From Vicinamibacterales bacterium (GTDB taxonomy: Bacteria > Acidobacteriota > Vicinamibacteria > Vicinamibacterales > UBA8438): DNA of 64,000 nt. Location: contig CBDAMZ010000009.1 in the NCBI GenBank assembly GCA_965197375.1, positions 137,956-201,955 on the forward strand. Reading direction: 5' to 3'. Numbering within the stretch: the stretch's first letter is position 1; every line of letters starts with the position of its first letter. Positions 41,622-63,935 of the stretch are shown one piece after another. The position numbers and the translations under genes were made by a program. Under the pieces are notes generated by a model. It had not been told where the DNA came from and made no database searches. It saw only the letters and a program-made list of their open reading frames with translations.

Positions 41622-42599
41622 CTACGAACGGGCGCCCGATGCCAGTCCGTTCTGAGCAATCAGGTCGCGGTACATCAGACGCTTCCCGACTAACCCGCGC
41701 GCAAGGGAAATCATCTGCGCCTGCGTGTCCGCCTCGCGTAGGTTGTGCTTCCAGGCAAACTCGTTGACGTAGCGTTGGAGGTGCTTGGGGCTCAGCTTGT
41801 GGAAGGTGCCCTTGTGGGCACGTTTAAGCATGGCCCAGAAGCTTTCGATCCCGTTGGTGTGCGCCATGTTGCTAACGTACTCACCTGCTGAGTGCTTCAC
41901 AGTTTCGTGGTTCGGTAGTCCCTCGTACCCGCCGTGGTCATCAGTGTAGACCGTCGCGCCAGGCGCAGTGTGGCGTTCGACGAATCCCTGTAAGGTCGGC
42001 GCGTCGGTCTGCTCGATGACGCGCGCGCTCACGCGGTTCGTCTTCCGATCCTTCGCGCCGATGACCGCCGTTTTCCCTGAAGGCCCTCGCCCGGTTCCGG
42101 CGAGGGCTTTCCGCGTCGCGTTGCTCATGTTCCGGCGTTTGCCGCCGACGTACGTTTCGTCCACTTCGACGGGACCGGTGAATGATGATCGGGTTGGTCT
42201 CCCCCACGCTTCGCGAATGCGATGCAGCATGAACCACGCGGCTGGTTGTGACACCCCGATATCCCGATGGAGTTTCATGCTGGAAATGCTCTTGAGGCTC
42301 GTGAGTTCGAGATACATGGCGAAGGCCCATTTTCGCAGCGGCACATGCGAGCGTTCCAGGATGGTCCCCGTGCGGACACTGAAGTACGATCGGCAGTCAG
42401 TGCACCAGTAGGGCATCGGTGTCGCGTTCGGGACGGGTCTCGTCGCGATGCTCCCGCAGTGGCCGCATCCGCGACCATCGGACCAGACGTACCGCTCGAA
42501 CCAGAGGGTCGCCGTCTGTTCGTCGGGGAACATCCGGGTCAATTCGATGAGCGTGATCCCCTTCCGGTGTGATTTCCCAGGGGCGGCAGGTCTTGGCAT
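41622..42599 (-). CDS. IS1595-family transposase (N-terminal zinc-ribbon + DDE domain)
   Basis: 325-aa ORF. CGHCGS...YWCTDCRSYFSVRTGTILERSHVPLRKWAFAMYL is the zinc-finger/HTH region typical of IS1595. VEVDETYVGGKRR, VYTDDHGGYEGL and HTNGIESFWAMLKR give the DDE-type catalytic contexts. Confidence 0.9.
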   Translation of the reverse strand: MPRPAAPGKSHRKGITLIELTRMFPDEQTATLWFERYVWSDGRGCGHCGSIATRPVPNATPMPYWCTDCRSYFSVRTGTILERSHVPLRKWAFAMYLELTSLKSISSMKLHRDIGVSQPAAWFMLHRIREAWGRPTRSSFTGPVEVDETYVGGKRRNMSNATRKALAGTGRGPSGKTAVIGAKDRKTNRVSARVIEQTDAPTLQGFVERHTAPGATVYTDDHGGYEGLPNHETVKHSAGEYVSNMAHTNGIESFWAMLKRAHKGTFHKLSPKHLQRYVNEFAWKHNLREADTQAQMISLARGLVGKRLMYRDLIAQNGLASGARS

Positions 42600-47581: not shown

Positions 47582-48547
47582 TTATCTGGTCGGCGGCACT
47601 CTTGGAATTGCGAAGAGGGAATTCCTCTGTTCCGCGCGCTTCTCCTCGAAGTAGCGGTCAAACGACCTTACGTCGCTGGTTCTGCCTAGCTCCGCGCCCT
47701 GCTTGATCCAGCGCACCAACATCCGAAACGGGTCGGGCGGTCTGGATCCGCCTGCGTGCGTCGCCGTCTCCGCGGACCACGAGTCCTGCCACGCCTCCGG
47801 GCCGTCCTTGTGCACCGTCACCCCGTAAGTTCCGGCGGCGGACTTGCGCACCTCCTTCCGCTCCCCCTTGGTCACTTGTCCCCACCTTACGGCATGCCCG
47901 TCCAGCGTCACGAGCAGGTTCGGCACCACGCTCGCATCCAGGCCCGCCGAGAGCCCGCTGAACATCCCCACCAGCGTTTCGCGACTCAGCCGCGACTCGC
48001 CCGCCAGCACGAACCCGAATATCTGTGCTCGCTCTTTCTGTTCCGGCCCCTCGTCCAGTCGGACGACCGAGTCGCGGTGCGGAGACAGGTAGTTCCGTTT
48101 CAACGGGATCGGTTCTCCGGTCGTGGGATGCGGCAGCAGGTCAGTCACGTCGTACCGCCGAAGTTCCTTCGCCGACGCGACCTTCCGGAACGCGTCCTCG
48201 AGCGAATCCCCATCCAGCCGACTCTTGATCTCGCCCACGGCGATCACGCCTTCGCACGGGTAGTAGGTCGTTTGCGCCGTGCGATTCACCGAGAACACCG
48301 GGCAGATGTCCCGCTCGTATACAACAACGTCCTGCTGGCGGCTCGTCCCGTCGTAGTTGTCTATGACGAAGCCTTCCCCGACTCCCAGACCCCGTGGCAG
48401 GACCTGCTCCAGTTGGTCCCTAACGGGTTGCTCCGCCGCCGATCCCACGGTCGACGGAGTAGTGCCGGCCTTTGCGTCCTTGAATTCGTCGACGAGCCGC
48501 TCACCGATGCGCCGGATGAATGCGTCCGGATCGAAGGTCCTGCTCAT
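47582..48547 (-). CDS. PD-(D/E)XK nuclease-fold protein (DUF6602-like)
   Basis: 321-aa ORF. SRQQDVVVYERD ... YPCEGVIAVGEIKSRLD gives a D...E-x-K arrangement on predicted strands. The family assignment is from memory of the DUF6602 pattern and is not verified. Confidence 0.55.
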   Translation of the reverse strand: MSRTFDPDAFIRRIGERLVDEFKDAKAGTTPSTVGSAAEQPVRDQLEQVLPRGLGVGEGFVIDNYDGTSRQQDVVVYERDICPVFSVNRTAQTTYYPCEGVIAVGEIKSRLDGDSLEDAFRKVASAKELRRYDVTDLLPHPTTGEPIPLKRNYLSPHRDSVVRLDEGPEQKERAQIFGFVLAGESRLSRETLVGMFSGLSAGLDASVVPNLLVTLDGHAVRWGQVTKGERKEVRKSAAGTYGVTVHKDGPEAWQDSWSAETATHAGGSRPPDPFRMLVRWIKQGAELGRTSDVRSFDRYFEEKRAEQRNSLFAIPRVPPTR

Positions 48548-49315: not shown

Positions 49316-51313
49316 TCAATCAGTGTCTTGTTCCGTTGGGCTATTCTTCTCTCTTGCGACATCAGGAAATGATTTCACAAACGCTGACAGCGCCGCTTCG
49401 GCGCGACCACACGTCTCCCAAAGAGCGGGCTCTACGTGAAGCAGTGCATAGATCTTTCTTTGTAAAGCGATGGCTTCCTCGCAAGTCATGTCTTCAAACG
49501 CCAACTCATTGAGCCAATCGCCGACGGTCTCGCTCCATGCAGCCAAGTCGCTGTTGGCAGCAGCCGCCACCACAGCGACTCGCGCAACGCCTTCAAGTGA
49601 AAGACCACAGTCAGCGCGCCGCCGTGCGACTCGACAAAGGTTCCGTACCTCGTTCGCCAACGCTACGCTCCGGGTGACAGCACTCACCACCGCAAGGCCA
49701 TTCAGCAGCGAGAACAAATCGTCATTGCCACTCACCCTCCGAAGCTGATATCCAACGCGAGATAAGCCCTGGGCTGCCAGTTCTGACAACTGGGGGCTGG
49801 TGCGATATAGCAATGACATGTTGACGAGTTCGCTGAATGACTCCGGAGTCAGTTCCTCAGTTTGAAGACTCACTCTGATGCTAGATTCATACTTGTCCGG
49901 CATTTCGATCACGGCCGCTGAGCCGCCTTCGAGAGGTCCTGGGAGAAAGGCATAGGGAATGATCTTGCGGGATTGAACCGCAGAACCTTCTCCCCAAAGA
50001 AGCGAAGTCAATTCACCCGATCGAACATTCTTTCGATATCGTTCCGCCGCATTCCTAATCCTTCCCAACATCTCTGCCTGGAGCTGCTTCGGCGTCATCC
50101 CGTCTGGGAACCAGCGTGGCTCTTGACGCAAGTCAACCAATGATTGCATGTAATAGTGAGCCCCACCACTCTCAAGTGCCCATTCTGAAAACACCGTTGG
50201 CGCTAGCTCTGCATCAAGTGCCTCGCGCTCAATTAGTGCGGCGTGAGCAATAGACGCCAGCCGTCTCCAAAATGGCGGTCGTTGTCGAGCGATGCTTCGG
50301 CGACTGATCTCACCGTCAACAAGCACCACGAGACCCGACAACAGCTTCAGACGCCCAGCGGGATCTTCCGGATCGTCAGCGCCAATCACCTGGATCATCG
50401 CCGCAAGCCATGGCTCAATCTCAGGAACCGAGTCGAAATGCTGCAGACCACATTCTATTGCCCCGACCTGAGAGATGCGATCGCCATGATTTGCCAACCA
50501 CTCGTAGGTCCGCACCACCTCCTCACGTGGCACCGCCGTCAAATCGATGATTTGCGAGATCATTTGATGAGACGAAAGCACGAATACGGACCGAAGTCCT
50601 TTATAGGACTTCCACTGAACCAGTGTCCGCACGTGAGACGTAAGCACGCCAGAGATAAAGTCGTTCACGTTTGTCTCGGTAGCCGGAATGCCTACCAAGC
50701 GATCGAAATATCGCAGATCGGATGGCACCAAGTCAGCGCCACTGAAATTAGGTGCTCGCAGCCGTTCACGGTTTGCGGCGGTGCAATGCACAGGAGTCAA
50801 ACGGAATTCGTCAAGAACGTCATTAACTTCGTCGTCCTCTAACGGTCTGTCAATCAAGACGTCTCGCCATCTCTTAATGCGTTCGTCGATGATGGCACAG
50901 TCGGCCGTCTGTCTCTCGAACCATTCCATTCGTGTATTGACGTCAGGCGCTAGACACGCACATTCTGGCAACGCCTGCACGACTTTCTCATGGGTAACAG
51001 TGATTCCAGTTCCATTGTCATTGGTTAGGCGCCATACCATACCGTCCATCGACTCAACGTCTACGCTACGAGTCGCGCCAGCAAGTACTTGTCGCGCGGC
51101 TCGGAAGAGTGTTGAGCGAATAAACTCTGCGCCTGTTCGCTTTAGCTGAACTACTGCGTCGCCGCGGAGGGCATAACGGGTGCGAAACTCTTCGTCTCTC
51201 ACTATGGCGGTACGTACGCTTGGCGGAAACAGTCGCAATGCCGCCATAGCCATCTCTGCGCCAGAGGGTGTTTCAGTCGTCATCGCCTGTTCTGTTCTGT
51301 AAACGTGTGACAC
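49316..51313 (-). CDS. large hypothetical protein (665 aa as tracked), partner of the 1546-aa gene
   Basis: Long ORF in an AT-richer segment with ordinary amino-acid composition. No motif recognised and no Walker A. The frame opens (GTG 51313; ATG 51283 or 51253) around the stop of the upstream gene (51273-51275), so the two genes overlap or abut. Confidence 0.6.
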   Translation of the reverse strand: MSHVYRTEQAMTTETPSGAEMAMAALRLFPPSVRTAIVRDEEFRTRYALRGDAVVQLKRTGAEFIRSTLFRAARQVLAGATRSVDVESMDGMVWRLTNDNGTGITVTHEKVVQALPECACLAPDVNTRMEWFERQTADCAIIDERIKRWRDVLIDRPLEDDEVNDVLDEFRLTPVHCTAANRERLRAPNFSGADLVPSDLRYFDRLVGIPATETNVNDFISGVLTSHVRTLVQWKSYKGLRSVFVLSSHQMISQIIDLTAVPREEVVRTYEWLANHGDRISQVGAIECGLQHFDSVPEIEPWLAAMIQVIGADDPEDPAGRLKLLSGLVVLVDGEISRRSIARQRPPFWRRLASIAHAALIEREALDAELAPTVFSEWALESGGAHYYMQSLVDLRQEPRWFPDGMTPKQLQAEMLGRIRNAAERYRKNVRSGELTSLLWGEGSAVQSRKIIPYAFLPGPLEGGSAAVIEMPDKYESSIRVSLQTEELTPESFSELVNMSLLYRTSPQLSELAAQGLSRVGYQLRRVSGNDDLFSLLNGLAVVSAVTRSVALANEVRNLCRVARRRADCGLSLEGVARVAVVAAAANSDLAAWSETVGDWLNELAFEDMTCEEAIALQRKIYALLHVEPALWETCGRAEAALSAFVKSFPDVAREKNSPTEQDTD

Positions 51314-54300
51314 TTCTCATGATTAAATGTGACGCGTCTTGAATTGATGCAGTGAACACATCGCTCTGCGTTTCCCTCACATCCTCCAATAGCGCGTTGT
51401 TCAGCCATTCCCAATATGCGTGTCGACGCTCCGACGCTTCCGATTTGAAGGTCATTAGTGCCACCAGTAGTGCACGAAAGCGCACGTGGCTATCCCCTCG
51501 ATCTGCCTCACCAACGTGTCGATGAGACCAACCACGAATATCTAGCAGCTCCAAGAGCCACGTACTCCGTGCCGCAGCCGTTGTGATGTCGATGTCTTCT
51601 CGCCACTGAGACCTGATTGTGTCAAGCAGTACGTGAAAAAGATTGTCTAACCAGGTGGACTCTACTGCAGGCGTGAGTCCTTTGGACATCCGGCACAGTT
51701 GTAGGTTTTCACGCAACGCTTTCATTTCAGCGCCCTCAGCTAGGGCATCGTCAACGACAGTACTTCGCGACAACAACACGGTGAGCTCGTCAAAGTCAAC
51801 TGGCACAAACGCAAGAGCTGCAGAGCGCATGCGCGAAAGATAGTCCGTGCGTTGCTCTTCTTCTAACTGCAATGCAGATAGCAGATCATATGTAGTCCAC
51901 AGAGGCGTCCGTGCACCACCGTTTTGTGAGATGTCTGAGTGCTGATTGAAATAGCGATCGTCAATAACAGCGACGTCGGCACAATTTGCGATTCGTATGA
52001 TGTCGATGGCTGGATGATCAAGAGCAGCATCTGTTGGACCCTCGTTCTGCACTCTCTGAGCCAGGCGCACCTTCCCGTTCATGATCCCGTTTCTGAGCAC
52101 CTCCCTGATGTGGTCGATAACCGCGTTCGCGCGCTCGGCTAGAGCCTCGTACTTAATGAGGCGATCGCCTTCGGCAATATGATTCGCTGAAATCATCAAA
52201 GAGAAGCCAGATGCCTCGAACTTGGGAAGGAGTCGGAGGTGCTGGAAGTACAAGAGTGATACACTGTCGATATAAAGCACTGAACCCGGCGCGACGGCGG
52301 GGTTCTCCGCCCAGGGGGTCTCGTGCAGGTTCAGAAACGTCCGCGCGCGGCGTTCCTCTGCTCGGGTTAGACGTCCTTGTTGAACTAAAGCGTCAATTAC
52401 GGCGAGACAGCCGCAGACGTACGTTTTGTGAAGACCGATGTCTGCCTCTTCTTCCATCAGAGACGCCACTCGATGGATCGGTGCAGACTTCACGACACGA
52501 CGCGGCCTGCGATCAGAACCCCAATCTGCTTTGGCCTCCGCGAATAAGCACGCAAGCTCTCGGCCAACCTCGCTTGCAAGCGCTTCATCGATGGGTGCCG
52601 TGGGCTCGATGGGCTTTAGTAGGCCAGAATCCACAAGACGTCTGATCTCACGCGCACTGGCTACCCTGCTTGGTTGATGAAAACGAATACGCTGCTTTTC
52701 TTCGAACAGCCATCCCAGCGTCGAGTGAGGAACTACAACCCTGCTCACCGCGCGCATTATCCGCTCAAGTAGGCCACACGTCCCTGCGATGAGAAGGGCG
52801 GTTGGGTCTATTGCAATCGAGTGAGGCATGCGCGATGACACACCTCGTCGAGCACCACTGTAGCTATACAGCAACACTCGCCGACGCGGATCAATGGTTT
52901 CCACATTGGCAAGGACGGGCAACATTAAGAACTCCGCCAGAGACCGGCTCAGCAGTCGTGCGCAAGTGAACATTGGAACGAGGCCAGCATTAAACTGATC
53001 CCAAGCTTCCGCCTCTCGTTGTTGCCAGTCTGGGTGTCGATCGATTAAGTCCCGGAGCGATACCCGTTCAACCGGGCCGCCTGAGTCAGATAGCGTCGCG
53101 GCTCGTTCGATCCATTGGACAGTAGTCTCGTCTTCCCATCCGGCCGCCACCGCACTGGAGTAGCATCCGAGTAGCACGTGCGGATCATCCGTCGCCTTGG
53201 CGGCGGCCTCTACAATGAGTGCTTGCGCTCGGGCCGATGTCAATTCTTGCGCTATTTGGCCAGCACGCAACAGTTCTTCGGCACTTCGGTCTGCTCGTCG
53301 CTCCCACTCGCGTTCCACAAAAGTCGCAAGAGAATGCCAGTCACCTGACGCAATCGCTAGATTTACAGCGAGAATCCGATCCTCCGGACAGTCGCGATGT
53401 TCCTGCAGCCGCGTCAGGGCATCGAGACACTTAGCTAACTCGCCAAGATTGTAAAGCGACCAAGCAAGCGATGACTGAAGGTGCTCGGATCTCGACAGCA
53501 GATCCTCGTGCACGCGCAGCAACTCGACGACCTCCTGAAACTTAGCAGTTTCAAATAAGGTCCTAGTGTAAAGCTGGCAGCTTGGTAGGTCGTTGGTCCG
53601 CTCAAAAAGAATCGCCGCGTACGTGGTTAGTCGAGCCCAATCTCTCTCACTTTCTAATGCCTCTACGAGAAGTATCAGGTCTGTCAGTTTATTTGTGGAA
53701 GCGAACTGCCTTTCGCGGACCACCGTTCGATTGGATTCTGCCTCGGCAATAAGCTGTGATAGTCGCGCGCGCTGCTCACTGGGCACATCATGGTTCAAGA
53801 GTTCTTCCAGGCGTTCTTTCGCCAAGGGAAGCTGGCCCGAAGCGACCAGTGACTCGACCTCAATGCTATTAAGGAAAAATATATTCAAGTGTTTCGCCAG
53901 CTCATGTCGATGTTGCCGGATATACGCGGCGCATTCCACGGGTGGCTTCGTCTGAGCGATCGCTAATCGTGCAAGGGCAGCATCTCTTGACCCATTGGCA
54001 GATAGTGATATGTGGCGATCGATCTCCTGCTCCACTGTGTCGAGATCGATCGTCAGGCCGAACTGCAGAGCGATCGGCAATCTCCTGAGGGCGTGCTCAG
54101 GACTTCGCATACTCTGTTCAAGGTCATTGATCGCGATGTGTCGTTCATCGGGATCCCTCAGCCTCAGCAACAGCGCACGGTCGGTCGCGTCGTAACTGCT
54201 CTCTAAGCATTCGAACTCCTGTGCTGCAAGAGCAGATTGCTGATACAAGTGTTGCGCCTTCCGTCGTGTCTCTAGCGAGGCGACGTCATCGGCAAGGGAA

Positions 54301-55913
54301 ATAGGTCCGATTATGAATGGTGGTTGCGATAGAATCACTTTTGCCAATTCACGTGGAACAACGGATGCCAAATGAGCATTCGCAGCGACATACCAGAGCG
54401 CTGGAGTGTGCTCAAAGTCACCGGGCTCAAGGCCGGCACAGCTCGCCAGTGCGTCCTCGAACAGGCTCGCATCCAGCTGCGCTGCGATCACGAAGAACCG
54501 TCCATCAGAATCGAGGTCGGCGAGCGTCAGACCACTCTTGCGTAGCCAAGCCAATGCCTCCTCTTGGTTCTTGTTATTCTTGATTGCGATGAATACTGCG
54601 GCTCGCGCAGTTCGTGACTCAAACTGTGACAGCTTGGCAATCGCACCTTCAAGATCGCCAGCGTAGGACTGCTCAAGGGCCTCAGCAATCGACACTTCCT
54701 CCGTATCTGCGAAACGGCGCGCGGCCCTAACGAGCTCCGGTCCCTCTGTATGACCGGGTTTGCCAAGCAAGAGCCGTGCACACCAAGCCACACCTCGCGC
54801 TTTTGTTATCGCGGGCGCCAATGCAAGATCGCCCGTAGAGAACGCTGTAGCTAGCCGCAAGGCTTGTTCATGAGGCCGTGCGCCGCTAAGGAACCGACTC
54901 TTCCGCAGACGCGTAAGGCGTCTCTCCGCCTCGGTGTTAACCAACTCTCGAGGCATTGCCACCGATAACGGAGAAGCGAACGTACTGGTTGTCAGTGTTG
55001 TCTCGATACGTACATGTGTGACGGGAATGCTTGTCGTACCTGCAGCGGTGTCCTGCAACGTGTCGTGGGTGACCAGCGTTGTGCGAGGACGCAATTGAGA
55101 GGGTGCCTTCAAGAAGTTCTTGATGTGAAGGTACGCCTCGGACTCCCGTGATGCTGGCGAGGCAATTCCAAGATGATCCGCATCAAGCGGAATTGGAGTT
55201 GGGAGCAATCCTGGGTCAGCGCGGTCGGGCGGGACAATATGGAACCCGAGTATGCTCTTAGTCTCGATCAGCGTCTTTATTGCAATGCCATTGTCCGCAG
55301 CGTACCCTCGAAACCATACGTTCAGATCTTGAAGACTCGGATTGTTACGTGCTAGTCCTCTCACGGCTGGCGACGGGCAGATGAGTAAACGCAGTATTCC
55401 GGTCCATGTGGCTAAATCGGCACCGCGATGAGGAGTTCCCAGGAATGCTATGCGACTGACTCGTTGGACAAAATTCGCTGCGTCTGGTTGCCGGGGCGAT
55501 AAATCATGCGCGACGCGCAGAATCTGTTCGAGGATCAGCCCACCGAAACTATGCGCAACGAATGCGATGTCCCCTTCAGCCAACCGCTCGTTCGTCAAGA
55601 GCAACGACAGGATATTGTTGGCTCGGTCGACTCGTGACATGGCGTGACCACGCCACAGAGTAGGCGCCGAATCATGTTCGATGCTCCAGACGCCAAGACG
55701 AGGGATATCATCTGCAAGCCACCGTGGCCACACCTCAGGCTTTCTACCGGAGGACAGCCACGGTTCTTTGTTCGAGAATCGAACCCCGTGAATCAACACA
55801 ACGTGCCTGTCAATAGACGCGAGGCTCGAGAGAGGGACTAGTTTCGACAGGATGAACTCCAAAGGATGTGCGAGATGGCGCCGATCGCAGGCGACGTTGC
55901 GCGATCGTGGCAC
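51273..55913 (-). CDS. giant protein: N-terminal lipase/esterase-like alpha/beta-hydrolase (DUF676/PGAP1/SesB-like) + >1200 aa helical-repeat region
   Basis: 1546-aa ORF. Hydrolase motifs: HVVLIHGVRF, IAFVAHSFGGLILEQI (nucleophile elbow, Ser122 at ~55548-55550), AFLGTPHRGADLA and LDADHLGIAS (Asp/His). The remainder is Leu/Ala/Glu/Arg-rich and TPR/helical-like, with no P-loop. The C-terminal ~500 aa contain several hhhD strands (IAIDPTALL, VLYIDSVSL, VAVIDDRYF) that could be a PIN-like fold (weak). Confidence 0.7.
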   Translation of the reverse strand: MPRSRNVACDRRHLAHPLEFILSKLVPLSSLASIDRHVVLIHGVRFSNKEPWLSSGRKPEVWPRWLADDIPRLGVWSIEHDSAPTLWRGHAMSRVDRANNILSLLLTNERLAEGDIAFVAHSFGGLILEQILRVAHDLSPRQPDAANFVQRVSRIAFLGTPHRGADLATWTGILRLLICPSPAVRGLARNNPSLQDLNVWFRGYAADNGIAIKTLIETKSILGFHIVPPDRADPGLLPTPIPLDADHLGIASPASRESEAYLHIKNFLKAPSQLRPRTTLVTHDTLQDTAAGTTSIPVTHVRIETTLTTSTFASPLSVAMPRELVNTEAERRLTRLRKSRFLSGARPHEQALRLATAFSTGDLALAPAITKARGVAWCARLLLGKPGHTEGPELVRAARRFADTEEVSIAEALEQSYAGDLEGAIAKLSQFESRTARAAVFIAIKNNKNQEEALAWLRKSGLTLADLDSDGRFFVIAAQLDASLFEDALASCAGLEPGDFEHTPALWYVAANAHLASVVPRELAKVILSQPPFIIGPISLADDVASLETRRKAQHLYQQSALAAQEFECLESSYDATDRALLLRLRDPDERHIAINDLEQSMRSPEHALRRLPIALQFGLTIDLDTVEQEIDRHISLSANGSRDAALARLAIAQTKPPVECAAYIRQHRHELAKHLNIFFLNSIEVESLVASGQLPLAKERLEELLNHDVPSEQRARLSQLIAEAESNRTVVRERQFASTNKLTDLILLVEALESERDWARLTTYAAILFERTNDLPSCQLYTRTLFETAKFQEVVELLRVHEDLLSRSEHLQSSLAWSLYNLGELAKCLDALTRLQEHRDCPEDRILAVNLAIASGDWHSLATFVEREWERRADRSAEELLRAGQIAQELTSARAQALIVEAAAKATDDPHVLLGCYSSAVAAGWEDETTVQWIERAATLSDSGGPVERVSLRDLIDRHPDWQQREAEAWDQFNAGLVPMFTCARLLSRSLAEFLMLPVLANVETIDPRRRVLLYSYSGARRGVSSRMPHSIAIDPTALLIAGTCGLLERIMRAVSRVVVPHSTLGWLFEEKQRIRFHQPSRVASAREIRRLVDSGLLKPIEPTAPIDEALASEVGRELACLFAEAKADWGSDRRPRRVVKSAPIHRVASLMEEEADIGLHKTYVCGCLAVIDALVQQGRLTRAEERRARTFLNLHETPWAENPAVAPGSVLYIDSVSLLYFQHLRLLPKFEASGFSLMISANHIAEGDRLIKYEALAERANAVIDHIREVLRNGIMNGKVRLAQRVQNEGPTDAALDHPAIDIIRIANCADVAVIDDRYFNQHSDISQNGGARTPLWTTYDLLSALQLEEEQRTDYLSRMRSAALAFVPVDFDELTVLLSRSTVVDDALAEGAEMKALRENLQLCRMSKGLTPAVESTWLDNLFHVLLDTIRSQWREDIDITTAAARSTWLLELLDIRGWSHRHVGEADRGDSHVRFRALLVALMTFKSEASERRHAYWEWLNNALLEDVRETQSDVFTASIQDASHLIMRSVTRLQNRTGDDD

Positions 55914-56209: not shown

Positions 56210-56539
56210 CTATGCCACCACGGGCTCGCGCATACGGCCCTGGGTTTTCAGCAGTTTCCGAAGGAATCGGACGACTGCTCGCCGATTCTGGTGCGATTGC
56301 ACGAGGATGTCCAGGACGTCACCGTCCTCGTCTACTGCGCGCCACATATACTGTTGGCGACCCTGGATCTTGACGAACACCTCGTCGAGATGCCGTTCCG
56401 GTGAGCAGGTCACCGTCCCAGTGCCCCGGGATGGCTCGATCTTCGATCTCCGCTGGCCGCTCGCGAATCGAGATAAGGCGAGAGACCTATCATCACGGAT
56501 CCATCTCGGCGTCACCGCAAGATCCCTCGCGGGCGGCAC
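56210..56539 (-). pseudogene. IS6-family (IS26-like) transposase fragment
   Basis: ...ERHLDEVFVKIQGRQQYMWRAVDEDGDVLDILVQSHQNRRAVVRFLRKLLKTQG matches the IS6 DDE region (W.lDEtyvKi.G...YLwRAvD..G..ld..l...Rd..aA..Ff.k.l). Confidence 0.7.
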
Positions 56540-56613: not shown

Positions 56614-57249
56614 CTAGCTCGCTTGCGCTTCCGGGAGTATCCCCATACCGGTGCTTCCGTACTTCTCGTACATCGATTCGAACCTGTTACGTAGATCGTC
56701 GTTGCCAACAAGCTCCTCGTGGTACGCTCTCAGTCCACGGACGAACGCCAAATAGACACCCTCGACACTGACGAGGAAATGATCCGGCTTCTCAGGGTTC
56801 TCCAAGATATCGAAGTCCGGTCGCCGATTCACTAGCCAGATCTCCCGCTGCTGGTCATACAACGTGAACGAATGCAGCAACGGATTCCTGAGACCGAGAT
56901 ACAGCACTAGCGCCGAACGGCCAGGATCCTTGGATGTCGGGAACATGTATCGAGCCGCGAAGTTCCTGATTCTGGCACTCACACCGCCCACTTCATCTGA
57001 CCCGGCGTAGAACTTCGCTAGCAAATCTACCCCAGCCATCACAACCATCAGAGTCGCGAACAGCCGGTGCTCCCCGCGCATCGCCTCCTCTACTACTGCA
57101 TCCTCGTGGAGCACCTTCCCGATGAGGCAGTCCTGAGCTTCACGACGAACCAAAAACAGAGAGCTATATGTGCCTGAGCCGTACGTACCTGCTTCAGTGG
57201 GTTGCTCGGGACTCGTGAAAAAGAACGTGATCTTCTCGTCAAGCGTCAT
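56614..57249 (-). CDS. hypothetical protein
   Basis: 211-aa ORF in the AT-richer segment with ordinary composition. No motif recognised. Confidence 0.5.
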   Translation of the reverse strand: MTLDEKITFFFTSPEQPTEAGTYGSGTYSSLFLVRREAQDCLIGKVLHEDAVVEEAMRGEHRLFATLMVVMAGVDLLAKFYAGSDEVGGVSARIRNFAARYMFPTSKDPGRSALVLYLGLRNPLLHSFTLYDQQREIWLVNRRPDFDILENPEKPDHFLVSVEGVYLAFVRGLRAYHEELVGNDDLRNRFESMYEKYGSTGMGILPEAQAS

Positions 57250-57481
57250 GCGCCAATCCTACCTGGCGTGAACGGCCTGTAGACTAGGATTTCCATGTTG
57301 AGGGCGTCGACGCAGAAGCCCGCGTCGAGGGTGTTCGACAGCCGCCAGGCCAGCACATACCGACTCGCCAAGTCCATCTGCCACGCGGAACTGCGTGTTC
57401 GTGCTGTGACGGGAAGCGCTCAGGTGGTCGGTGATGAGTCGCTTGGCCATCGCCGTCACTCAATTGTGGGGCGTCGCTCTA

Positions 57482-57775
57482 CTAGACGGCAGCGGGGCGG
57501 TAACGCTTGACCCTGATATCGCCTTCGCGCATCCGTGCGCGGGCGATATCGTAGGACGCCTGCATCCGCATGAGCGTGTCCATCTTGATGCTGAAGGCCT
57601 TCTCGATGCGCAACGCCATGGTGCCGGACAAGTCGGAACGCCCGTTGAGGAACGTCGACAGTGCAGGACGGGAGACGCCGAGTACGGTCGCAGCGGCGGC
57701 GACGGTCAGGTTGAGCGGTTCGATAACCTCGGTCTTGACGAACTCACCGGGATGTGGGGGGTTCAGCATGCGCAT
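57482..57775 (-). CDS. higA: HigA-type antitoxin (XRE-family HTH)
   Basis: Track ORF 57482..57820. Start placed at M16 (MRMLNPPHPGEFVKTEVIEPLNLTVAAAATVLGVSRPALSTFLNGRSDLSGTMALRIEKAF), the typical HigA/VapI HTH. It lies downstream of the toxin gene, which is the hig gene order. Confidence 0.85.
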   Translation of the reverse strand: MRMLNPPHPGEFVKTEVIEPLNLTVAAAATVLGVSRPALSTFLNGRSDLSGTMALRIEKAFSIKMDTLMRMQASYDIARARMREGDIRVKRYRPAAV

Positions 57776-57788
57776 GGTCGTTCTCCCG

Positions 57789-58073
57789 CTAGTGATAATC
57801 CTCCAGGTCCACGTCAACAATCTCGTCGCCGTCGACCCGGAAGGTGAGCCGCCAGTTGCGCGTGACGTGGAGGCTCCAGGTACCCTTGTGGTCGCCAGTC
57901 AGTTGATGCGCCTTCCAGGTGTGGATCGTGCGTAACTCGTCAGACGTTCCCATATCCTGCAGAAATGCCAACATCCTGCGGAGTTTGTCCACGGCGGCGG
58001 CCGGAACCCCTCTGTGGTCGTCCCTGAGAAACAGACGACGGACACCCCGATGGACGATGTGCCGGATCGTCAC
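57789..58073 (-). CDS. higB: HigB-type toxin (RelE/ParE superfamily, 'plasmid maintenance system killer')
   Basis: 94-aa ORF. MTIRHIVHRGVRRLFLRDDHRGVPAAAVDKLRRMLAFLQDM...HQLTGDHKGTWSLHVTRNWRLTFRVDGDEIVDVDLEDYH matches the HigB/killer-protein pattern (L.G.r.g.wSi.v...wRl.F......v.l.dYH). Confidence 0.85.
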   Translation of the reverse strand: MTIRHIVHRGVRRLFLRDDHRGVPAAAVDKLRRMLAFLQDMGTSDELRTIHTWKAHQLTGDHKGTWSLHVTRNWRLTFRVDGDEIVDVDLEDYH

Positions 58074-58437: not shown

Positions 58438-59268
58438 CTAGGATTGGAGGCTCGCCCGGATCGTTTCGTAAAGTGTCTTCAGTATAGCCTTGGTCTCCTG
58501 CGCCGCTAGATTTCTCTCGTGGCGCGCCTCCAGCATGCGATAAGCTATTGCCCGTTTGTTCGGAGGGCTGATGCCCTTTGTCTGACACCATTGATCGAGG
58601 GCGATAACGCGACCGGTTCTCGGTATCTCCGCTTCTTTGATTTTGCAGCCATCCCCGTGCGAGCGCCTGAACTCTTCATTGATCGCACAAACATAGCTCC
58701 GCAGTTCCAGAAAGTCCTCAAGTACCGTATCGGACTCGTCAATCTTCGGAAGCGAATGGACTAGTGTGGCCGGTATACCAGCGGCGATGACCTTTTGGTA
58801 CAAAATTCGCCCTGATTTATCGTTGTCCGTTAGGAACACTACTCTTGGCGACTCATTCTTAACTAGCGCCAATTGCTCTTCGGAAGCACTTGATAGCCCT
58901 GGTGCGACCTGAAACCCAAGATGCTCGACCGCGAGTACTTCTTTCAGGAGCGCAGGTAGAAGGATCATGTCTGTGGCACCTTCGGTAAGAACAGCGAATC
59001 GAATCGGAATAAACGCCAATGTGCTGGCTCCCATTCCAAACAGCAATCGGGAGAAGCCAGGATAACCATTACTCCAGAACCAATTGTTTATCTGACTTAA
59101 GTGGTCGGTGGCTTCGACCATTCGAACGCCGAGACCGAGATCTTCAGGGAGGCAACCGAGAGAATGAGTCGTGTACACAACCTTTGCCGCAACGTCCTGG
59201 TGCGCGAGCATCTGCACAAGATCGGCCTGTGCGTCGTAGTGCAGGTGGCGTTCGACTTCATCTATCAA
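58438..59268 (-). CDS. OLD-family nuclease, C-terminal part (Walker B/H-loop of the ABC-type ATPase + Toprim domain)
   Basis: 276-aa ORF starting (TTG) at LIDEVERHLH. Upstream in the same frame is PPIV, giving PPIVLIDEVERHLH (Walker B). VVYTTHS is the H-loop. VLTEGATDMILLPALL (Toprim Glu) and VVFLTDNDKSGR (DxD) follow. Confidence 0.75.
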   Translation of the reverse strand: MIDEVERHLHYDAQADLVQMLAHQDVAAKVVYTTHSLGCLPEDLGLGVRMVEATDHLSQINNWFWSNGYPGFSRLLFGMGASTLAFIPIRFAVLTEGATDMILLPALLKEVLAVEHLGFQVAPGLSSASEEQLALVKNESPRVVFLTDNDKSGRILYQKVIAAGIPATLVHSLPKIDESDTVLEDFLELRSYVCAINEEFRRSHGDGCKIKEAEIPRTGRVIALDQWCQTKGISPPNKRAIAYRMLEARHERNLAAQETKAILKTLYETIRASLQS

Positions 59269-59270
59269 GA

Positions 59271-60389
59271 CTATCGGCGGACCTTAAGATTAGGGTGACT
59301 GGAGAGAAACATAAAGAGTGCTAGGAACTGGCGCAGCCCATCACTCCTCTCAGCGATGCGATCGAACTGACCACCCGGTGATTTAACAAGAATGTGTAGC
59401 ACTCTTCCGTCTAGCCGTAGCCGAACGGTGATTGGTGACTGCGACCAGTTTGTCTTTAGAAGGTCTCTCAGTATTGCATTCGCGCTGTCCAAAAGCGTTT
59501 CAATGTGGCCTTCGTCGTTGATGATGGCGGCGTCGTAGAGTTCCCTGAGCGTTAATCTCGCAGCACCCGAGAGATTCTTCAAAGCGCTCGGAATGGATAG
59601 CGGGTTGTTGGGTCTGAAAAGTTCCTCCAAGTTGTACTCAGACTCAAGTAGGCGATGGTCGTCGCTGAAGAATAGGAACTCCGGCTTCAATGCGAGGAGG
59701 GCCTTCGCCGCAGAATTCGCTGGGTGTGCAAGCAACTCGGACTCGGCTACTTTACGGAAGATGCTCGGGATGGCTTGGAGTTGCTCGGAAGCACCCTCAA
59801 CGATTGGGTCGATTACTTCTGCTTGGCTTTGGAGGATTTGGAGCTTCGCGCTCGAAAGAGTCTGATCCTCGTCCAAAAGCACCTCGCGAACAGCGTCGAA
59901 TTCTACAAACTCCTTCGCGGCCTCATCTTCCGACGACTCTCCAGCCGTGGATTCCGAAATTCTCTCTATTTCAGACCTCGCCGCGTCAAACGCGGAGAGC
60001 GCGCGTCGTCGCGGCTCGAGATCCCTTTCTGGCTCCGGGTTCTGGCGTGTTTCCAGAGGCCCGCCCTGGGCTTTCTTTGACAAAGAAAACCACCTTATCT
60101 CGGAGGCTTCTGGAATGTGGCTGATCACACGGTGGTCATCGTCATCGAGCAAGAAGGTCGCTTCGATGACGTAATCCTCTGGGCTGACAGATTTTCCCCG
60201 TGTCGTTTCCTGCGACGAGCCCGATAGGCGAAACTCGGTCTGGTGATTCAGGTGCTGTAGTGCGTCGAGGATGGAGGTCTTGCCTGACTCGTTCGGGCCG
60301 ACGACCGCCACGACTTTGGTATCAAAGTTGACTTTGGACCGAACAGAAAAGCGTCTAAATCCTTCGATCTCGAACCAAACCAGCTTCAT
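59271..60389 (-). CDS. OLD-family nuclease, N-terminal part (ABC/AAA_15-type ATPase, Walker A to signature motif)
   Basis: 372-aa ORF. MKLVWFEIEGFRRFSVRSKVNFDTKVVAVVGPNESGKTSILDAL carries the Walker A. It ends ...IAERSDGLRQFLALFMFLSSHPNLKVRR*, immediately before the Walker B encoded in another frame. Confidence 0.75.
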   Translation of the reverse strand: MKLVWFEIEGFRRFSVRSKVNFDTKVVAVVGPNESGKTSILDALQHLNHQTEFRLSGSSQETTRGKSVSPEDYVIEATFLLDDDDHRVISHIPEASEIRWFSLSKKAQGGPLETRQNPEPERDLEPRRRALSAFDAARSEIERISESTAGESSEDEAAKEFVEFDAVREVLLDEDQTLSSAKLQILQSQAEVIDPIVEGASEQLQAIPSIFRKVAESELLAHPANSAAKALLALKPEFLFFSDDHRLLESEYNLEELFRPNNPLSIPSALKNLSGAARLTLRELYDAAIINDEGHIETLLDSANAILRDLLKTNWSQSPITVRLRLDGRVLHILVKSPGGQFDRIAERSDGLRQFLALFMFLSSHPNLKVRR

Positions 60390-60699
60390 GTCTCTATCTC
60401 CCGCTCAGCTCCACAGCCGCACCACCTCGACTTTTCGCTTGAAGTGATAGAGCACGCCGACCACCGCGAGCAGCATCAACGATTCCGTGCAGGCAGCGAT
60501 GAAGAAAACGGCGAGTGGATACCCGGCCAAGCCGGAGCTACGCCTTTAGGTTCCGTGTGGCCCTGACGCTCACCCCTTCAGTATCTACCTCTTCACATCG
60601 GGGATCCAGAGGGCGACGCTCCCTGGCCGGTGATTGCTCGGATCTGGAGAGAGGTATCGCCAATCACTTTGACGTCATCTTCGGCCTGAGCCTTGAGCG

Positions 60700-61242
60700 T
60701 CAAACGGTTTCGGCTTGTTCAACCAGCCATTTCCGAATGTGGCCATCGAGTGGTGATAGGAATTCTTCGCCTGTCGACGCGTACACGCCAACACTCAATA
60801 GTCGAAGCTTCAGTGAAAATGGTCCGGCAGCACCGAGCGTTTTGAGCAGCTCGCTCGCGGAGCGCGGAAATGTCTTTGTCAGGAAGAAGAAGAGCGCCTG
60901 ATCGCCGTATTGCAGTTTTGCTGGCACCTTTGTCGAGTACGGGTCGTCGGGCGGAAACACAACGTACGATTGTCTTCGCAATCCTCTTTGCTTCCACATG
61001 ATCCCGGACACGACAACTTCCAGAGACCCGCGGTTTACAACCCGGATCTGGAGGAACTCTGCCCCGTCCCCTAACCGCTGGCCCGTCGGAATCATCCGCA
61101 CTATGGAGCAGGACACTCGAACCCTGTGCCTCGACATTCGGCTCGCCAAATAGAGCGAGACCAAGACCGCACACAGCGTCCCGAGTGCCGAGAACCATGG
61201 TGCGAAGGAGTTTATAAAATCCCAAGTCTCACGATCGGGCAT
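60700..61242 (-). CDS. hypothetical N-terminally membrane-anchored protein
   Basis: 180-aa ORF with a TM segment FAPWFSALGTLCAVLVSLYLA. It lies upstream of and co-directional with the OLD gene. No motif recognised. Confidence 0.5.
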   Translation of the reverse strand: MPDRETWDFINSFAPWFSALGTLCAVLVSLYLASRMSRHRVRVSCSIVRMIPTGQRLGDGAEFLQIRVVNRGSLEVVVSGIMWKQRGLRRQSYVVFPPDDPYSTKVPAKLQYGDQALFFFLTKTFPRSASELLKTLGAAGPFSLKLRLLSVGVYASTGEEFLSPLDGHIRKWLVEQAETV

Positions 61243-61540
61243 CTACTTCAAAGTCCGCTCGATGTGGGGCCGCTTGAACTCCATGCAAGCGCCCGGTGAA
61301 GGCGACGCTCGTGAATTGGCGGCCCTGGTCGGTGTTGAAGATCTCCGGCGGGCAATGGCGGGCCAGCGCGTCGTTGAGGGCGTCGACGCAGAAGCCCGCG
61401 TCGAGGGTGTTCGACAGCCGCCAGGCCAGCACATGCCGGCTCGCCAAGTCCATCTGCCACGCGGAACTGCGTGTTCGTGCTGTGACGGGAAGCGCTCAGG
61501 TGGTCGGTGATGAGTGGCTTGGCCATCGCCGTCACTCAAT
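61229..61540 (-). pseudogene. IS3-family transposase (OrfB/rve integrase core) fragment, frameshifted
   Basis: MDLASRHVLAWRLSNTLDAGFCVDALNDALARHCPPEIFNTDQGRQFTSVAFTGRL matches the IS3 rve core (D...R.vvgw..s......l...AL..A......P.i.HsDqGsQftS..F). A shorter tail of the same fragment opens repeat copy A (57297-57460). Confidence 0.7.
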
Positions 61541-61557
61541 TATGGGGCGTCGCTCTA

Positions 61558-61851
61558 CTAGACGGCAGCGGGGCGGTAACGCTTGACCCTGATGTCGCCT
61601 TCGCGCATCCGGGCGCGGGCGATATCGTAGGATGCCTGCATCCGCATGAGCGTGTCCATCTTGATGCCGAAGGCCTTCTTGATGCGCAACGCCATGGTGC
61701 CGGACAAGTCGGAACGCCCGTTGAGAAACGTTGACAGTGCAGGACGGGAGACGCCGAGCACAATCGCAGCGGCGGCGACGGGCAGGTTGAGCGGCTCGAT
61801 AACCTCGGTCTTGACGAACTCACCAGGATGCGGGGGGTTCAGCATGCGCAT
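61558..61851 (-). CDS. higA: HigA-type antitoxin, second copy
   Basis: Track ORF 61558..61896, start at M16. It differs from copy A at ~4 residues (LNLPVAAAAIVLG, RIKKAFGIKM). Confidence 0.85.
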   Translation of the reverse strand: MRMLNPPHPGEFVKTEVIEPLNLPVAAAAIVLGVSRPALSTFLNGRSDLSGTMALRIKKAFGIKMDTLMRMQASYDIARARMREGDIRVKRYRPAAV

Positions 61852-62788: not shown

Positions 62789-63935
62789 TTACTTCGACTC
62801 TATGGCAGACGCCCAGTCGTTCATCAGCCGCCGCCGACGCTCGAAGAGATCACTGCGCGCGTAGGCCGCCTCGGTGGAGTTCTGTACCGTATGGGCGAGC
62901 GCGGCCTCGACCACCTGCGGGGTGTGCTCGTCCGTTCCGCGGCCCAGTCCCGGAAGCTCGACCGGAACCCATGCGGCACGGCGGCGATGCCGAGTTCCTT
63001 GGTCAATTTCGATAGCGTCATGTTGGAGAGTGGCTTCCCGCGCAGGCTGCGGAACACGAGACCGGTGCCGTCACTGCGTCTCCGTACGTCGTGCAGGATC
63101 GTCAGCGCCCGCCCCGAGAGCGGAACGCGGTGATCCCGCTTCGCCTTCATGCGCGCGGCTGGAATAGTCCAGACGCGCGCGTCCCGGTCCATTGCGTCCC
63201 ACGTCGCCAGGCGTACCTCGCCGGACCGCGCCGCCGTCAGCACCAGGAACTCGAACGCCCGCTTGGTGGGGACCGAGGCCTGGGAGGCTCGCACGGTCGC
63301 GAGGGCGTCCGCCACCGCGCCGTGCGGCAGCGCCCGCATGTGCTGGACGACGGCTTACTGCCGCCGAGGGCGTCGCCCGCAGGGTTGTCCGGCCGGTAAC
63401 CCATGGCGACCGCCCACTTCATCACGGCACCGATCCGCTGGCGCACGCGCCGTGCGGTCTCGGGCTTGTCGTGCCAGATCGGGGTGAGGATGGCCAAGAC
63501 GTCGGCCGTCGACACCTCGGACACAGGCAGCGCCCCGATGCGCGGGAACGCATAGGCGCGCAGACTGCGCGGCCAGTCCCGCGCGTGCTTGGCATTGCGC
63601 CAGCTGGGGCGCTGCTGCGCCAACACCTCGGCGGCGGCCTCCTCGACCGTGGGCACGCCTTGGCCATGGCGCTTCTCGGCCAGCGGGTCTCCGCCCGCCC
63701 GGGCCCGCTGGCGGTTTACGAACGCCGCGTTGCGCGCCTCGGCCAGTGACACCAGCGGGTAGCCGCCGAGTCCGAGCATCCGGGGCCGGCCCCGAATGAC
63801 CAGCCGTTGTACCCACTGGCGCGCCCCGGACGGATCCACGCGCAAGTTCAGTCCGTGGCCGTCGCAATAGAACCCGGGCTCGGCGGTACGCACAAAGGCG
63901 GCGCGGCGCCCGGGGGTGATTGAGGTCGCATCCGC
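62789..63935 (-). pseudogene. int: P4-type tyrosine integrase paralogous to 10560..11771, inactivated by several frameshifts/stop
   Basis: ORF 63237..63893 (FVRTAEPGFYCDGHGLNLRVDPSGARQWVQRLVIRGRPRMLGLGG...) is ~87% identical by eye to the left integrase over ~175 aa. The frame breaks near 63340-63360 (..QTAAAVVQHMRALPH, with an in-frame TAA). ORF 62824..63339 continues (KRAFEFLVLTAARSGEV...HGFRSSFRDWAAERTSTP). A 1-nt loss follows, and the tail QVVEAALAHTVQNSTEAAYARSDLFERRRRLMNDWASAIESK* ends at 62789. No in-frame ATG lies upstream of GTG 63893. Confidence 0.85.

Follow-up and report, generated by a model that had tools for sequence, protein, structure and literature searches.

A probable two-gene variant of the TPR-GreAB-C-PIN class with a lipase-like head in a Vicinamibacterales bacterium

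The gene pair

Two overlapping genes on the minus strand of a 64,000-nucleotide stretch of DNA from a Vicinamibacterales bacterium (GenBank assembly GCA_965197375.1, contig CBDAMZ010000009.1, positions 137,956 to 201,955) are the subject of this article. The whole stretch is called the window, and all coordinates are given within it. The upstream gene (gene 1) encodes a very large protein that starts with a lipase-like hydrolase, and the downstream gene (gene 2) encodes its partner. A first, sequence-only reading of the window had described two co-directional open reading frames (ORFs) whose frames meet at 51273-51313; both are indeed found there on the minus strand, with an overlap of 11 nucleotides (nt). 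Residue numbers of the gene 1 product follow the 1546-amino acid (aa) numbering throughout. The modular architecture of the pair includes the following features, expectation values being abbreviated as E:

51273..55913, minus strand: gene 1, large protein; longest ORF 1546 aa from GTG 55913, stop TGA 51273-51275
54984..55862, minus strand: swappable effector head, lipase-like alpha/beta-hydrolase of the DUF676/PGAP1/SesB type, from motifs and homology
53064..54983, minus strand: alpha-helical TPR-like repeat region of ~640 aa, residues ~311-950, beginning at the conserved P-x-x-L-V-D...LRKSRFF junction
52848..53057, minus strand: helix-turn-helix (HTH) domain, HTH_upst_double_PIN (PF24407), residues 953-1022 (E 3.9e-21, 75.6 bits, cut-off 27)
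52299..52835, minus strand: PIN-like domain A (PIN-A, provisional), residues ~1027-1205, with conserved D1036, E1071/E1072 and E1155
51858..52298, minus strand: PIN-like domain B (PIN-B), the PIN of TPR-GreAB-C-PIN (PIN-TPR-GreABC, PF20698), with conserved D1216, D1318, D1319, N1323 and D1343
51276..51857, minus strand: C-terminal all-helical tail, residues ~1353-1546, helices 413-601 of the modelled fragment, conserved across loci
51273..51283, minus strand: stop/start overlap of gene 1 and gene 2, 11 nt, ATGACGACTGA, read from the sequence
49316..51313, minus strand: gene 2, partner, longest frame, 665 aa from GTG; stop 49316-49318
49316..51283, minus strand: gene 2 with the likelier start, 655 aa from ATG 51283; an identical public protein exists (P0078)
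50969..51154, minus strand: small beta-rich N-terminal domain of the partner, residues ~44-105, Pfam Permuted_GreAB-C (PF24388) and AlphaFold2 model
49319..50968, minus strand: all-helical solenoid of the partner, residues ~106-655 (AlphaFold2; helical to residue 647)

The likely start of gene 1 is the TTG at 55862, which gives a protein of 1529 aa. This codon is favoured because the N-termini of homologues line up with the peptide LEFILSKLVPLSS..DRH; no clear Shine-Dalgarno sequence was found upstream of it. A protein homology search returned a public protein 100% identical to the gene 1 product (P0001), as well as ~53 full-length homologues; most of what a further search with the C-terminal 607 aa retrieved was fragmentary. 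In the public annotation P0001 has 1455 aa and begins at Met92, so that the hydrolase loses its first beta-strand and its HG oxyanion motif (window 55638-55913); another member of the P0001 cluster has 1509 aa. For gene 2, the ATG at 51283 is preferred because the resulting length is that of P0078 and because residue 1 then aligns with residue 1 of the homologues. This ATG sits within ...GGCGATGACGACTGA and overlaps the gene 1 stop by 11 nt, an arrangement which suggests that the two genes are translationally coupled.

Both frames run unbroken across 6.6 kb, and relatives at 86-87% identity are likewise intact. Since both proteins have hundreds of conserved homologues, the pair is evidently no product of chance. 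Upstream of it, the promoter scan gave one weak sigma-70-like site against 3.1 expected by chance, and the promoter/terminator scan was uninformative.

The hydrolase head

The large protein opens with the serine-hydrolase signature that had been picked out from the bare sequence. All four motifs (HVVLIHG, AFVAHSFGG, FLGTPHRGA, and LDADHLGI) are in place at residues 37, 117, 157, and 243, and Ser122 is present. Across 16 aligned heads of homologues, H42-G43, S122-x-G-G, T160-P161-H162-x-G164, and H247 are invariant and D230 is nearly so. The window protein retains every one of these residues, including S122 in AHSFGG, and Ser122, Asp230, and His247 presumably make up the catalytic triad.

The PADLOC model DUF626_VIII matches the head over residues 52-309 (E 2.1e-19). 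The model stands for an accessory protein found with type VIII retrons and labelled “putative serine esterase” (Mestre et al., 2020, PMC7736814; PADLOC PDLC02918). The PADLOC check of the pair recovered the head by way of DUF626_VIII, and no model for the pair itself was found. In a profile search of the Protein Data Bank (PDB) sequences, weak matches fall at the nucleophile elbow, to the alpha/beta-fold hydrolase 8hfw (E 1.5e-3) and the lipase 5ah0 (E 1e-2), and several homologues of the large protein carry PF05057. Taken together, motifs and homology point to a serine-hydrolase effector with a fold of the DUF676/PGAP1 type. The same head is also N-terminal in fungal NACHT/NB-ARC NOD-like receptors (NLRs), in an Amycolatopsis NB-ARC-TPR protein, and in Streptomyces S1-domain proteins; the head homologues (P0055, P0063-P0077) were matched with E 1e-33 to 5e-4 in the protein homology search.

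The constant core of gene 1

Behind the head, more than 1200 aa of helical-repeat-like sequence had been noted. Some 640 aa of this stretch look like helical repeat of an apparently TPR-like kind, and an HTH and two PIN-like domains follow. Among 30 homologues, the repeat region is matched by TPR_19 in five (best 2e-7) and by ARM_TT21 in three; in the window protein itself, Pfam gives only sub-threshold matches to ANAPC3 and ImpA_N. The family profile of the region matches designed PPR repeats in the PDB (7e-8).

The remainder of the core was modelled with AlphaFold2 (gene 1 residues 940-1546, 63 homologues), with a mean predicted local distance difference test score (pLDDT) of 89.6 and a predicted template modeling score (pTM) of 0.85. 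The HTH domain corresponds to helices 14-66 of this fragment (pLDDT ~90). PIN-A is modelled over residues ~1031-1199 with the topology beta-alpha-alpha-beta-alpha-alpha-beta-alpha-beta; it has no Pfam match, and a profile search of PDB sequences returned nothing at E<=10. The identity of PIN-B is secure: PF20698 matches residues 1214-1326 (E 1.6e-11, 45.1 bits, cut-off 27.8) over profile positions 1-136 of 138, and the model shows a beta/alpha domain of PIN-like topology spanning ~1211-1349. Its matches in the profile search of PDB sequences are at chance level. When the two domains are compared by hhalign they align in register and weakly (E 0.04-0.18), and in both of them a conserved aspartate closes the first strand (D1036 and D1216).

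The absence of any nucleoside triphosphatase (NTPase), already claimed from sequence inspection, holds in both proteins, which have no [AG]xxxxGK[ST] Walker A motif and no NACHT, NB-ARC, or AAA matches in Pfam and PADLOC scans. A reading of the pair as a member of the STAND (signal transduction ATPases with numerous domains) or NLR proteins is rejected, there being neither a P-loop nor a Walker A motif. Pfam also finds no GreA/B-type match in gene 1, where the HTH domain PF24407 occupies the interval between the TPR-like region and the PIN domains. Nor did the gene 1 scan find a signal peptide, Rhs, PAAR, or another trafficking domain.

The partner protein

The partner, in which the sequence-only reading had recognized nothing, belongs to a family with a recognizable N-terminal domain: 13 of 18 clear orthologues match Permuted_GreAB-C (PF24388; best E 1.7e-9). 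Many database homologues bear the same entry in precomputed annotation, and one UniRef name reads “GreAB-C-like domain-containing protein.” An AlphaFold2 model built from 107 sequences (mean pLDDT 89.7, pTM 0.89) gives this domain the topology beta-beta-alpha-beta-beta-beta-beta at pLDDT 82-94. The all-helical solenoid that makes up the rest of the protein is marked by motifs found family-wide as invariant alignment columns, among them GDRISQVGAIE, PPFWRRLA, EPRW, LPGPLEGG, and AVTRS. The family is a large one. When 1.84 billion proteins were searched with the profile, 1,419 cluster representatives (50% identity) had E<=1e-3, and 758 of them reached E<=1e-30.

Pairing, fusion, and head exchange

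To see the pair in other genomes, as the sequence-only reading had suggested, one genome per species was scanned with the partner alignment. This gave 80 loci, or 81 with the addition of Bradyrhizobium sediminis, from more than 10 phyla (Proteobacteria, Acidobacteria, Latescibacterota, Nitrospirota, Chloroflexi, Firmicutes, Cyanobacteria, Bacteroidetes, Verrucomicrobia, and others). The pair is syntenic: in 78 of the 81 loci, the partner is preceded, directly upstream and on the same strand, by a homologue of large-protein residues ~300-1503. Two of the three exceptions (L030 and L053) have just ~70 bases of contig upstream; the third (L082) is a separately fetched draft contig outside the DNA set searched, yet it carries the core. 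Where the partner alignment starts from residue 1 (20 loci), the upstream ORF ends 1-11 nt beyond the partner start; these upstream ORFs are mostly full-length, with pieces of 246-802 aa in L002 and L009.

The draft contig is attributed to Escherichia coli (GCA_012576305.1, contig AASUHP010000093.1, 3.6 kb). It carries a 5′-truncated core, 38% identical to residues 685-1529 and named “HNH endonuclease” by NCBI, then the start of the partner gene. The 5,426 complete E. coli genomes gave no match, and this copy is either very rare in E. coli or a contaminant.

Core and partner can also be one protein. They form a single ORF of 1860-2230 aa in 12 loci (L018, L021, L035, L036, L039, L041, L066, L068, L070, L072, L075, and L076), for example in Paenibacillus sp. 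SI92, Caldilineaceae, Thermodesulfobacteriota, and Verrucomicrobia. These 12 loci demonstrate that genes of this family have repeatedly fused or split. Fusions, with the partner C-terminal, account for ~15% of the best 150 representatives in the profile search of 1.84 billion proteins, and one of them (P0049, 2010 aa) combines PF24388, PF24407, and PF20698. The two genes evidently constitute one obligate unit. No third conserved gene was found among the largest flanking ORFs, one to either side, in ~60 loci (106 ORFs).

Contrary to the core, the head is not conserved. Just 16 of the 78 loci can be aligned over residues 1-300; in the rest, the alignment begins at residues 285-318, at the conserved P-x-x-L-V-D...LRKSRFF junction. 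The heads are distributed as follows:

Hydrolase, aligned over residues 1-300: 16 loci
HNH: 22 of 44 other heads
SMEK_N: 4 of 44
TIR: 1 of 44
PNP_UDP_1 (PNPase): 1 of 44
Calcineurin-like phosphoesterase (Metallophos): 1 of 44
Mrr-type restriction endonuclease (REase): 1 of 44
Without Pfam match: 14 of 44
Headless, proteins of ~1266 aa: about 9 loci

The first ~300 residues of gene 1 are, as far as these alignments go, swappable on a constant core. The spread of the family over its many phyla is patchy, with roughly 32-57% identity between distant phyla.

Genomic context in the window

The pair lies in a stretch that was described as AT-richer than its surroundings, and the measured composition agrees. 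Its GC content is 54.9% and its GC content at third codon positions (GC3) is 0.55-0.56, compared with 68% GC for 42-49 kb and a GC3 of 0.80 for the two downstream genes. Because of this low GC and GC3 relative to its neighbours, the pair is considered foreign to its surroundings. The features around it are:

47582-48547, minus strand: DUF6602/PD_DExK/NucC-like nuclease ORF, downstream of the pair (PADLOC PD_DExK E 4e-29, NucC E 7.5e-19)
56210-56539, minus strand: partial IS240/IS6-type DDE domain, upstream of the pair (profile positions 5-56 of 139)
58438-59268, minus strand: Toprim part of an OLD-type gene, 276 aa, in the other reading frame
59271-60389, minus strand: OLD/GajA/AriA/PtuA-like ABC-type ATPase, 372 aa
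61865-62149, minus strand: HigB-like RelE-family toxin (E 3.8e-12)
62824-63339, minus strand: partial tyrosine (phage-integrase-family) integrase
41622-42599, minus strand: IS1595/ISXO2-type transposase, apparently intact
29277-35721, plus strand: addB-like gene (1057 aa, C-terminal PD-(D/E)XK) and addA-like gene (1094 aa, UvrD helicase and PD-(D/E)XK), overlapping

Profile matches were found at each of the three neighbours named beforehand, the PD-(D/E)XK-like ORF, the IS6 debris, and the OLD-family nuclease. The DUF6602 ORF has a native-like GC3 of 0.80 and is followed by a LuxR-type regulator; in other genomes it does not consistently accompany the pair. The AAA_21 profile runs across both OLD-type ORFs (positions 2-252, then 264-300), and 58438-60389 appears to be one OLD-family defence gene that a frameshift, or else a sequencing error, has split. 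As for the higBA module announced nearby, the HigB-like toxin is there; the adjoining 95-aa ORF in the antitoxin position (61536-61823, minus strand) has no Pfam match at E<=0.01. The addAB-like genes look like ordinary recombination-repair genes, and the left of the window is probably core genome. Remnants of mobile elements (the IS240/IS6 and IS1595/ISXO2-type sequences and the partial integrase) enclose the low-GC stretch. No tRNA gene was found in the 64-kb window, hence none at the island border. Among the IS6 fragment, the OLD-type gene, and higB, the low-GC stretch also contains several ORFs of 128-211 aa without Pfam or PADLOC match (56614-57249, minus strand; 57431-57847, plus strand; 60515-61242).

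A probable conflict module

The TPR-GreAB-C-PIN (TGP) proteins were defined as an effector or adaptor head followed by TPR, a GreA/B C-terminal (GreA/B-C) domain, and a new PIN domain, and are “mostly standalone” (Kaur, Burroughs, Iyer, and Aravind, 2021, eLife, PMC8195603). The class was predicted in 2021 with a head repertoire of HNH, REase, PNPase, TIR, SIR2, and peptidases, and in the model put forward the PIN domain would cut the transcript, the head firing if that fails (PMC8195603). The tested example is Bab/Agp from E. coli ECOR25, a TGP protein whose executioner is amyloid-coupled and which protects against phage T5; mutations in the GreA/B-C domain of Agp abolish this protection (bioRxiv 10.1101/2024.11.07.622273).

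The present pair is placed in this class because its constant part carries PF20698 and PF24407, and its partner family PF24388. It is probably a variant of the TGP class with a lipase-like head and not a wholly new system. The sequence-only reading had proposed an NTPase-less effector-sensor protein plus an unknown partner in a defence-island context. What is supported is a self-contained conflict module of effector and sensor that has no NTPase and lies in a defence-rich region acquired by horizontal transfer. The further claim that the module is uncharacterized and new in kind is not supported, since these Pfam domains were defined for TGP systems and for their relatives with a double PIN and a permuted GreAB-C.

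It is probable, to a fair degree, that the pair is a split double-PIN TGP-type conflict (anti-phage) module working broadly as described below. The observations behind this reading are the domain content, the intact catalytic-type residues, the obligate pairing and fusion, the head replacement, the patchy distribution, and the foreign composition. The estimate covers the module as a whole, and any single mechanistic step is to be credited with much less. If the TGP model (Kaur et al., 2021) and Bab/Agp are a guide, the complex of core and partner would monitor RNA polymerase, or transcripts seized by an invader, through its GreAB-C-like, HTH, and PIN domains. Gene 2 would supply the small domain, according to Pfam a circularly permuted GreA/B C-terminal (RNA-polymerase-binding) domain, together with the helical solenoid; what the complex senses would possibly be RNA polymerase or the nucleic acid of the invader. 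One or both PIN domains may cut nucleic acid. Activation, perhaps by oligomerization, would free the hydrolase head to attack lipids or another ester substrate, and the infected cell would be stopped or killed (abortive infection).

Several observations weigh against this reading. For the head, the Pfam matches over residues ~35-300 are sub-threshold (DUF676, 14.1 bits for a cut-off of 20.3; PGAP1, 11.3 bits for a cut-off of 24.3), as is that to DUF7379, so the proposed fold leans on motifs and homology. PIN-A is assigned provisionally, from its topology, its conserved acidic residues, and the weak hhalign alignment. In the window partner, PF24388 matches residues 51-93 with E 4e-4 and 20.4 bits, under the cut-off of 27. 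The partner N-terminal domain has no GreA, GreB, or Gfh1 match in the profile search of PDB sequences, and hhalign finds no similarity between it and E. coli GreA (GreA sequence entered by hand); its kinship with GreA is the call of the Pfam curators, taken from the family name and hidden Markov model. Structure modelling, which had been recommended as a check, delivered the HTH, two Rossmann-like beta/alpha domains of PIN type, and a tail in gene 1, and a beta-rich domain and a solenoid in the partner; Foldseek comparison of both whole multi-domain models with the PDB and BFVD returned generic helical repeats only, none with E<=1e-3, and no significant PIN, GreA, or other specific match.

The distribution of the family raises further points of this kind. 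A partner homologue is found on 3 of 72,556 plasmids, and the pair proteins have no match in the phage collection; the locus DNA has none in the plasmid collection. Proximity of homologues to defence genes, another of the proposed checks, is seen in part: the flanks elsewhere hold scattered resolvases, integrases, type I restriction-modification subunits, ResIII/SNF2 helicases, OLD-type ATPases, and Fic proteins, in a crude sample without background control that makes these flanks suggestive only. Finally, for this variant the mechanism is drawn by analogy from the TGP precedent, and experimental support exists only for Bab/Agp.

A bolder formulation can be entertained more tentatively, as a possibility somewhat short of an even chance. 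The HTH-double-PIN core and the permuted-GreAB-C/solenoid partner would then be an immune sensor in its own right, free of any NTPase and widespread, with no fewer than 1,400 clusters (50% identity) and members in over 10 phyla. It would watch the transcription machinery and fire interchangeable effectors, among them a lipase head that fungal NLRs and retrons share. Its sensing and switching, carried out by a two-subunit assembly that hydrolyses no nucleotide, would set it apart from canonical TGP proteins and STAND/NLR proteins alike.

Alternative explanations

Could the pair simply be an addiction module? The large protein would then be the toxin, through its hydrolase, its PIN domains, or both, and the partner its inhibitor, the whole stabilizing the island with no phage sensing. 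PIN domains are the classic VapC-type toxins, and the setting is suitable: two overlapping genes in a mobile low-GC island beside higB, with no conserved third gene. With 1529 and 655 aa, the two proteins far exceed the sizes of toxin-antitoxin components, and their fusion in 12 of 78 loci and ~15% of the top representatives fits one machine better than a labile antitoxin. Many effector heads swapped on a constant core are a hallmark of sensor-effector immune proteins, and the HTH is within the large PIN protein, not in the partner. A toxin-antitoxin role of this kind is unlikely, and a classic type II system (VapBC-like) is rejected on the protein sizes, the HTH inside the PIN protein, and the 12 fused loci.

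Another question is whether the pair still works at all, or is a decayed, silent relic on a degraded island, no longer expressed or functional here. Neither ORF is interrupted anywhere in the 6.6 kb, every family-invariant and catalytic-type residue is in place, public entries are 100% identical, and the 86-87% identical relatives are intact too, all of which makes decay quite improbable in spite of the damaged neighbours (IS6 transposase fragment, frameshifted OLD-type gene, partial integrase), the lack of a convincing promoter upstream (one weak sigma-70-like site, 3.1 being expected by chance), and a TTG start without a clear Shine-Dalgarno sequence.

Very improbable is a housekeeping or stress role in transcription or RNA turnover, in which a GreA-like RNA-polymerase-binding subunit and PIN RNases would act on stalled complexes and play no part in conflict. 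Pfam does tie the partner to GreA/B-C, a transcription-factor domain, HTH and PIN domains are found in RNA metabolism, and most loci are chromosomal. Such a factor would hardly be expected to show a patchy multi-phylum distribution with roughly 32-57% identity between distant phyla, a foreign GC3, and swappable HNH, TIR, PNPase, and REase heads; nor to be missing from 5,426 complete E. coli genomes, though present on one draft contig, and to be flanked by mobile or defence genes at a fraction of its loci.

Polymorphic toxin systems typically feature lipase-like effectors and exchangeable toxin domains (PMC3482391). That the pair is a secreted or contact-dependent lipase toxin with its immunity protein, directed against other bacteria, can nonetheless hardly be right and is rejected, because the variable domain is N-terminal and not C-terminal, the Pfam scan turned up neither a signal peptide nor any trafficking domain such as Rhs or PAAR, the weak match to ImpA_N of the type VI secretion system (E 0.008-0.03) is below cut-off and within the helical repeat, and the 655-aa partner is kept whatever the head, and often fused to the gene 1 product, which is incompatible with a head-specific immunity protein.

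Comparison with known systems

As a probable TGP-type conflict module, the pair is best compared with the TGP proteins themselves. Like them, it places a variable N-terminal effector on a constant, fast-evolving core, with a matching repertoire of HNH, REase, TIR, and PNPase heads. It also shares with them the PF20698 PIN, what looks like a TPR-like region, a putative domain of GreA/B-C type (per Pfam), the lack of an NTPase, and the patchy spread over many phyla. Unlike in TGP proteins, the GreAB-C-like domain is permuted (again per Pfam) and is not found between the TPR and the PIN; it is N-terminal on a separate 655-aa protein, or part of a C-terminal fusion, in company with a large solenoid, and in gene 1 the internal GreA/B-C has given way to an HTH and a second PIN-like domain. 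TGP genes mostly stand alone; the pair is an obligate two-gene unit, adjacent or fused in 78 of 81 loci. Its head is an alpha/beta-hydrolase, which is not among the TGP effectors in the text of PMC8195603. None of five host species of the two-gene variant appears in supplementary file 1 (the TGP table) of Kaur et al. (2021); Solimicrobium silvestre, host of the two-gene variant at L048, appears in the other supplementary files only, and the remaining four species do not appear there. No literature was found on the double-PIN/permuted-GreAB-C variant or on its Pfam accessions, and no model for the variant was found in PADLOC 2.0, which recognizes the head only. The names of PF24407 and PF24388 by themselves show that Pfam curators have seen this architecture.

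The other systems resemble the pair mainly through the head. CapV of CBASS (cyclic oligonucleotide-based antiphage signalling system) is a patatin-like phospholipase effector in abortive infection. The likeness would be one of function, by analogy: a hydrolase held inactive, released on infection, and damaging the cell envelope. CapV differs in its fold family and in its activation logic, a cyclic nucleotide taking the place of a protein sensor. The accessory esterase of type VIII retrons has a homologous head, and both are domains in effector position in defence-type loci; unlike the retron, the pair has no reverse transcriptase or non-coding RNA, and the head is the sole shared part. Fungal NLRs (NACHT/NB-ARC-WD40/TPR) and bacterial STAND proteins have the same N-terminal head family and the same layout of an effector followed by a repeat sensor. 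Unlike them, the pair has no P-loop domain, and its oligomerization and switch module must therefore differ.

Should the pair prove active, the TGP class, in which Bab/Agp is the single experimental example, would gain a well-defined family. The family boundaries are clear: two genes, sometimes fused, and a sharp junction for head exchange. It would also offer a second, different architecture in which NTPase-free sensor switching and the GreA-like reading of RNA polymerase during infection can be put to the test. For annotation, the public model starting at Met92 drops part of the hydrolase, and current PADLOC models recognize the head only. The lipase-like head itself now joins bacterial TGP-type proteins, type VIII retrons, and fungal NLRs, which supports the idea that effector modules are shared across immune scaffolds.

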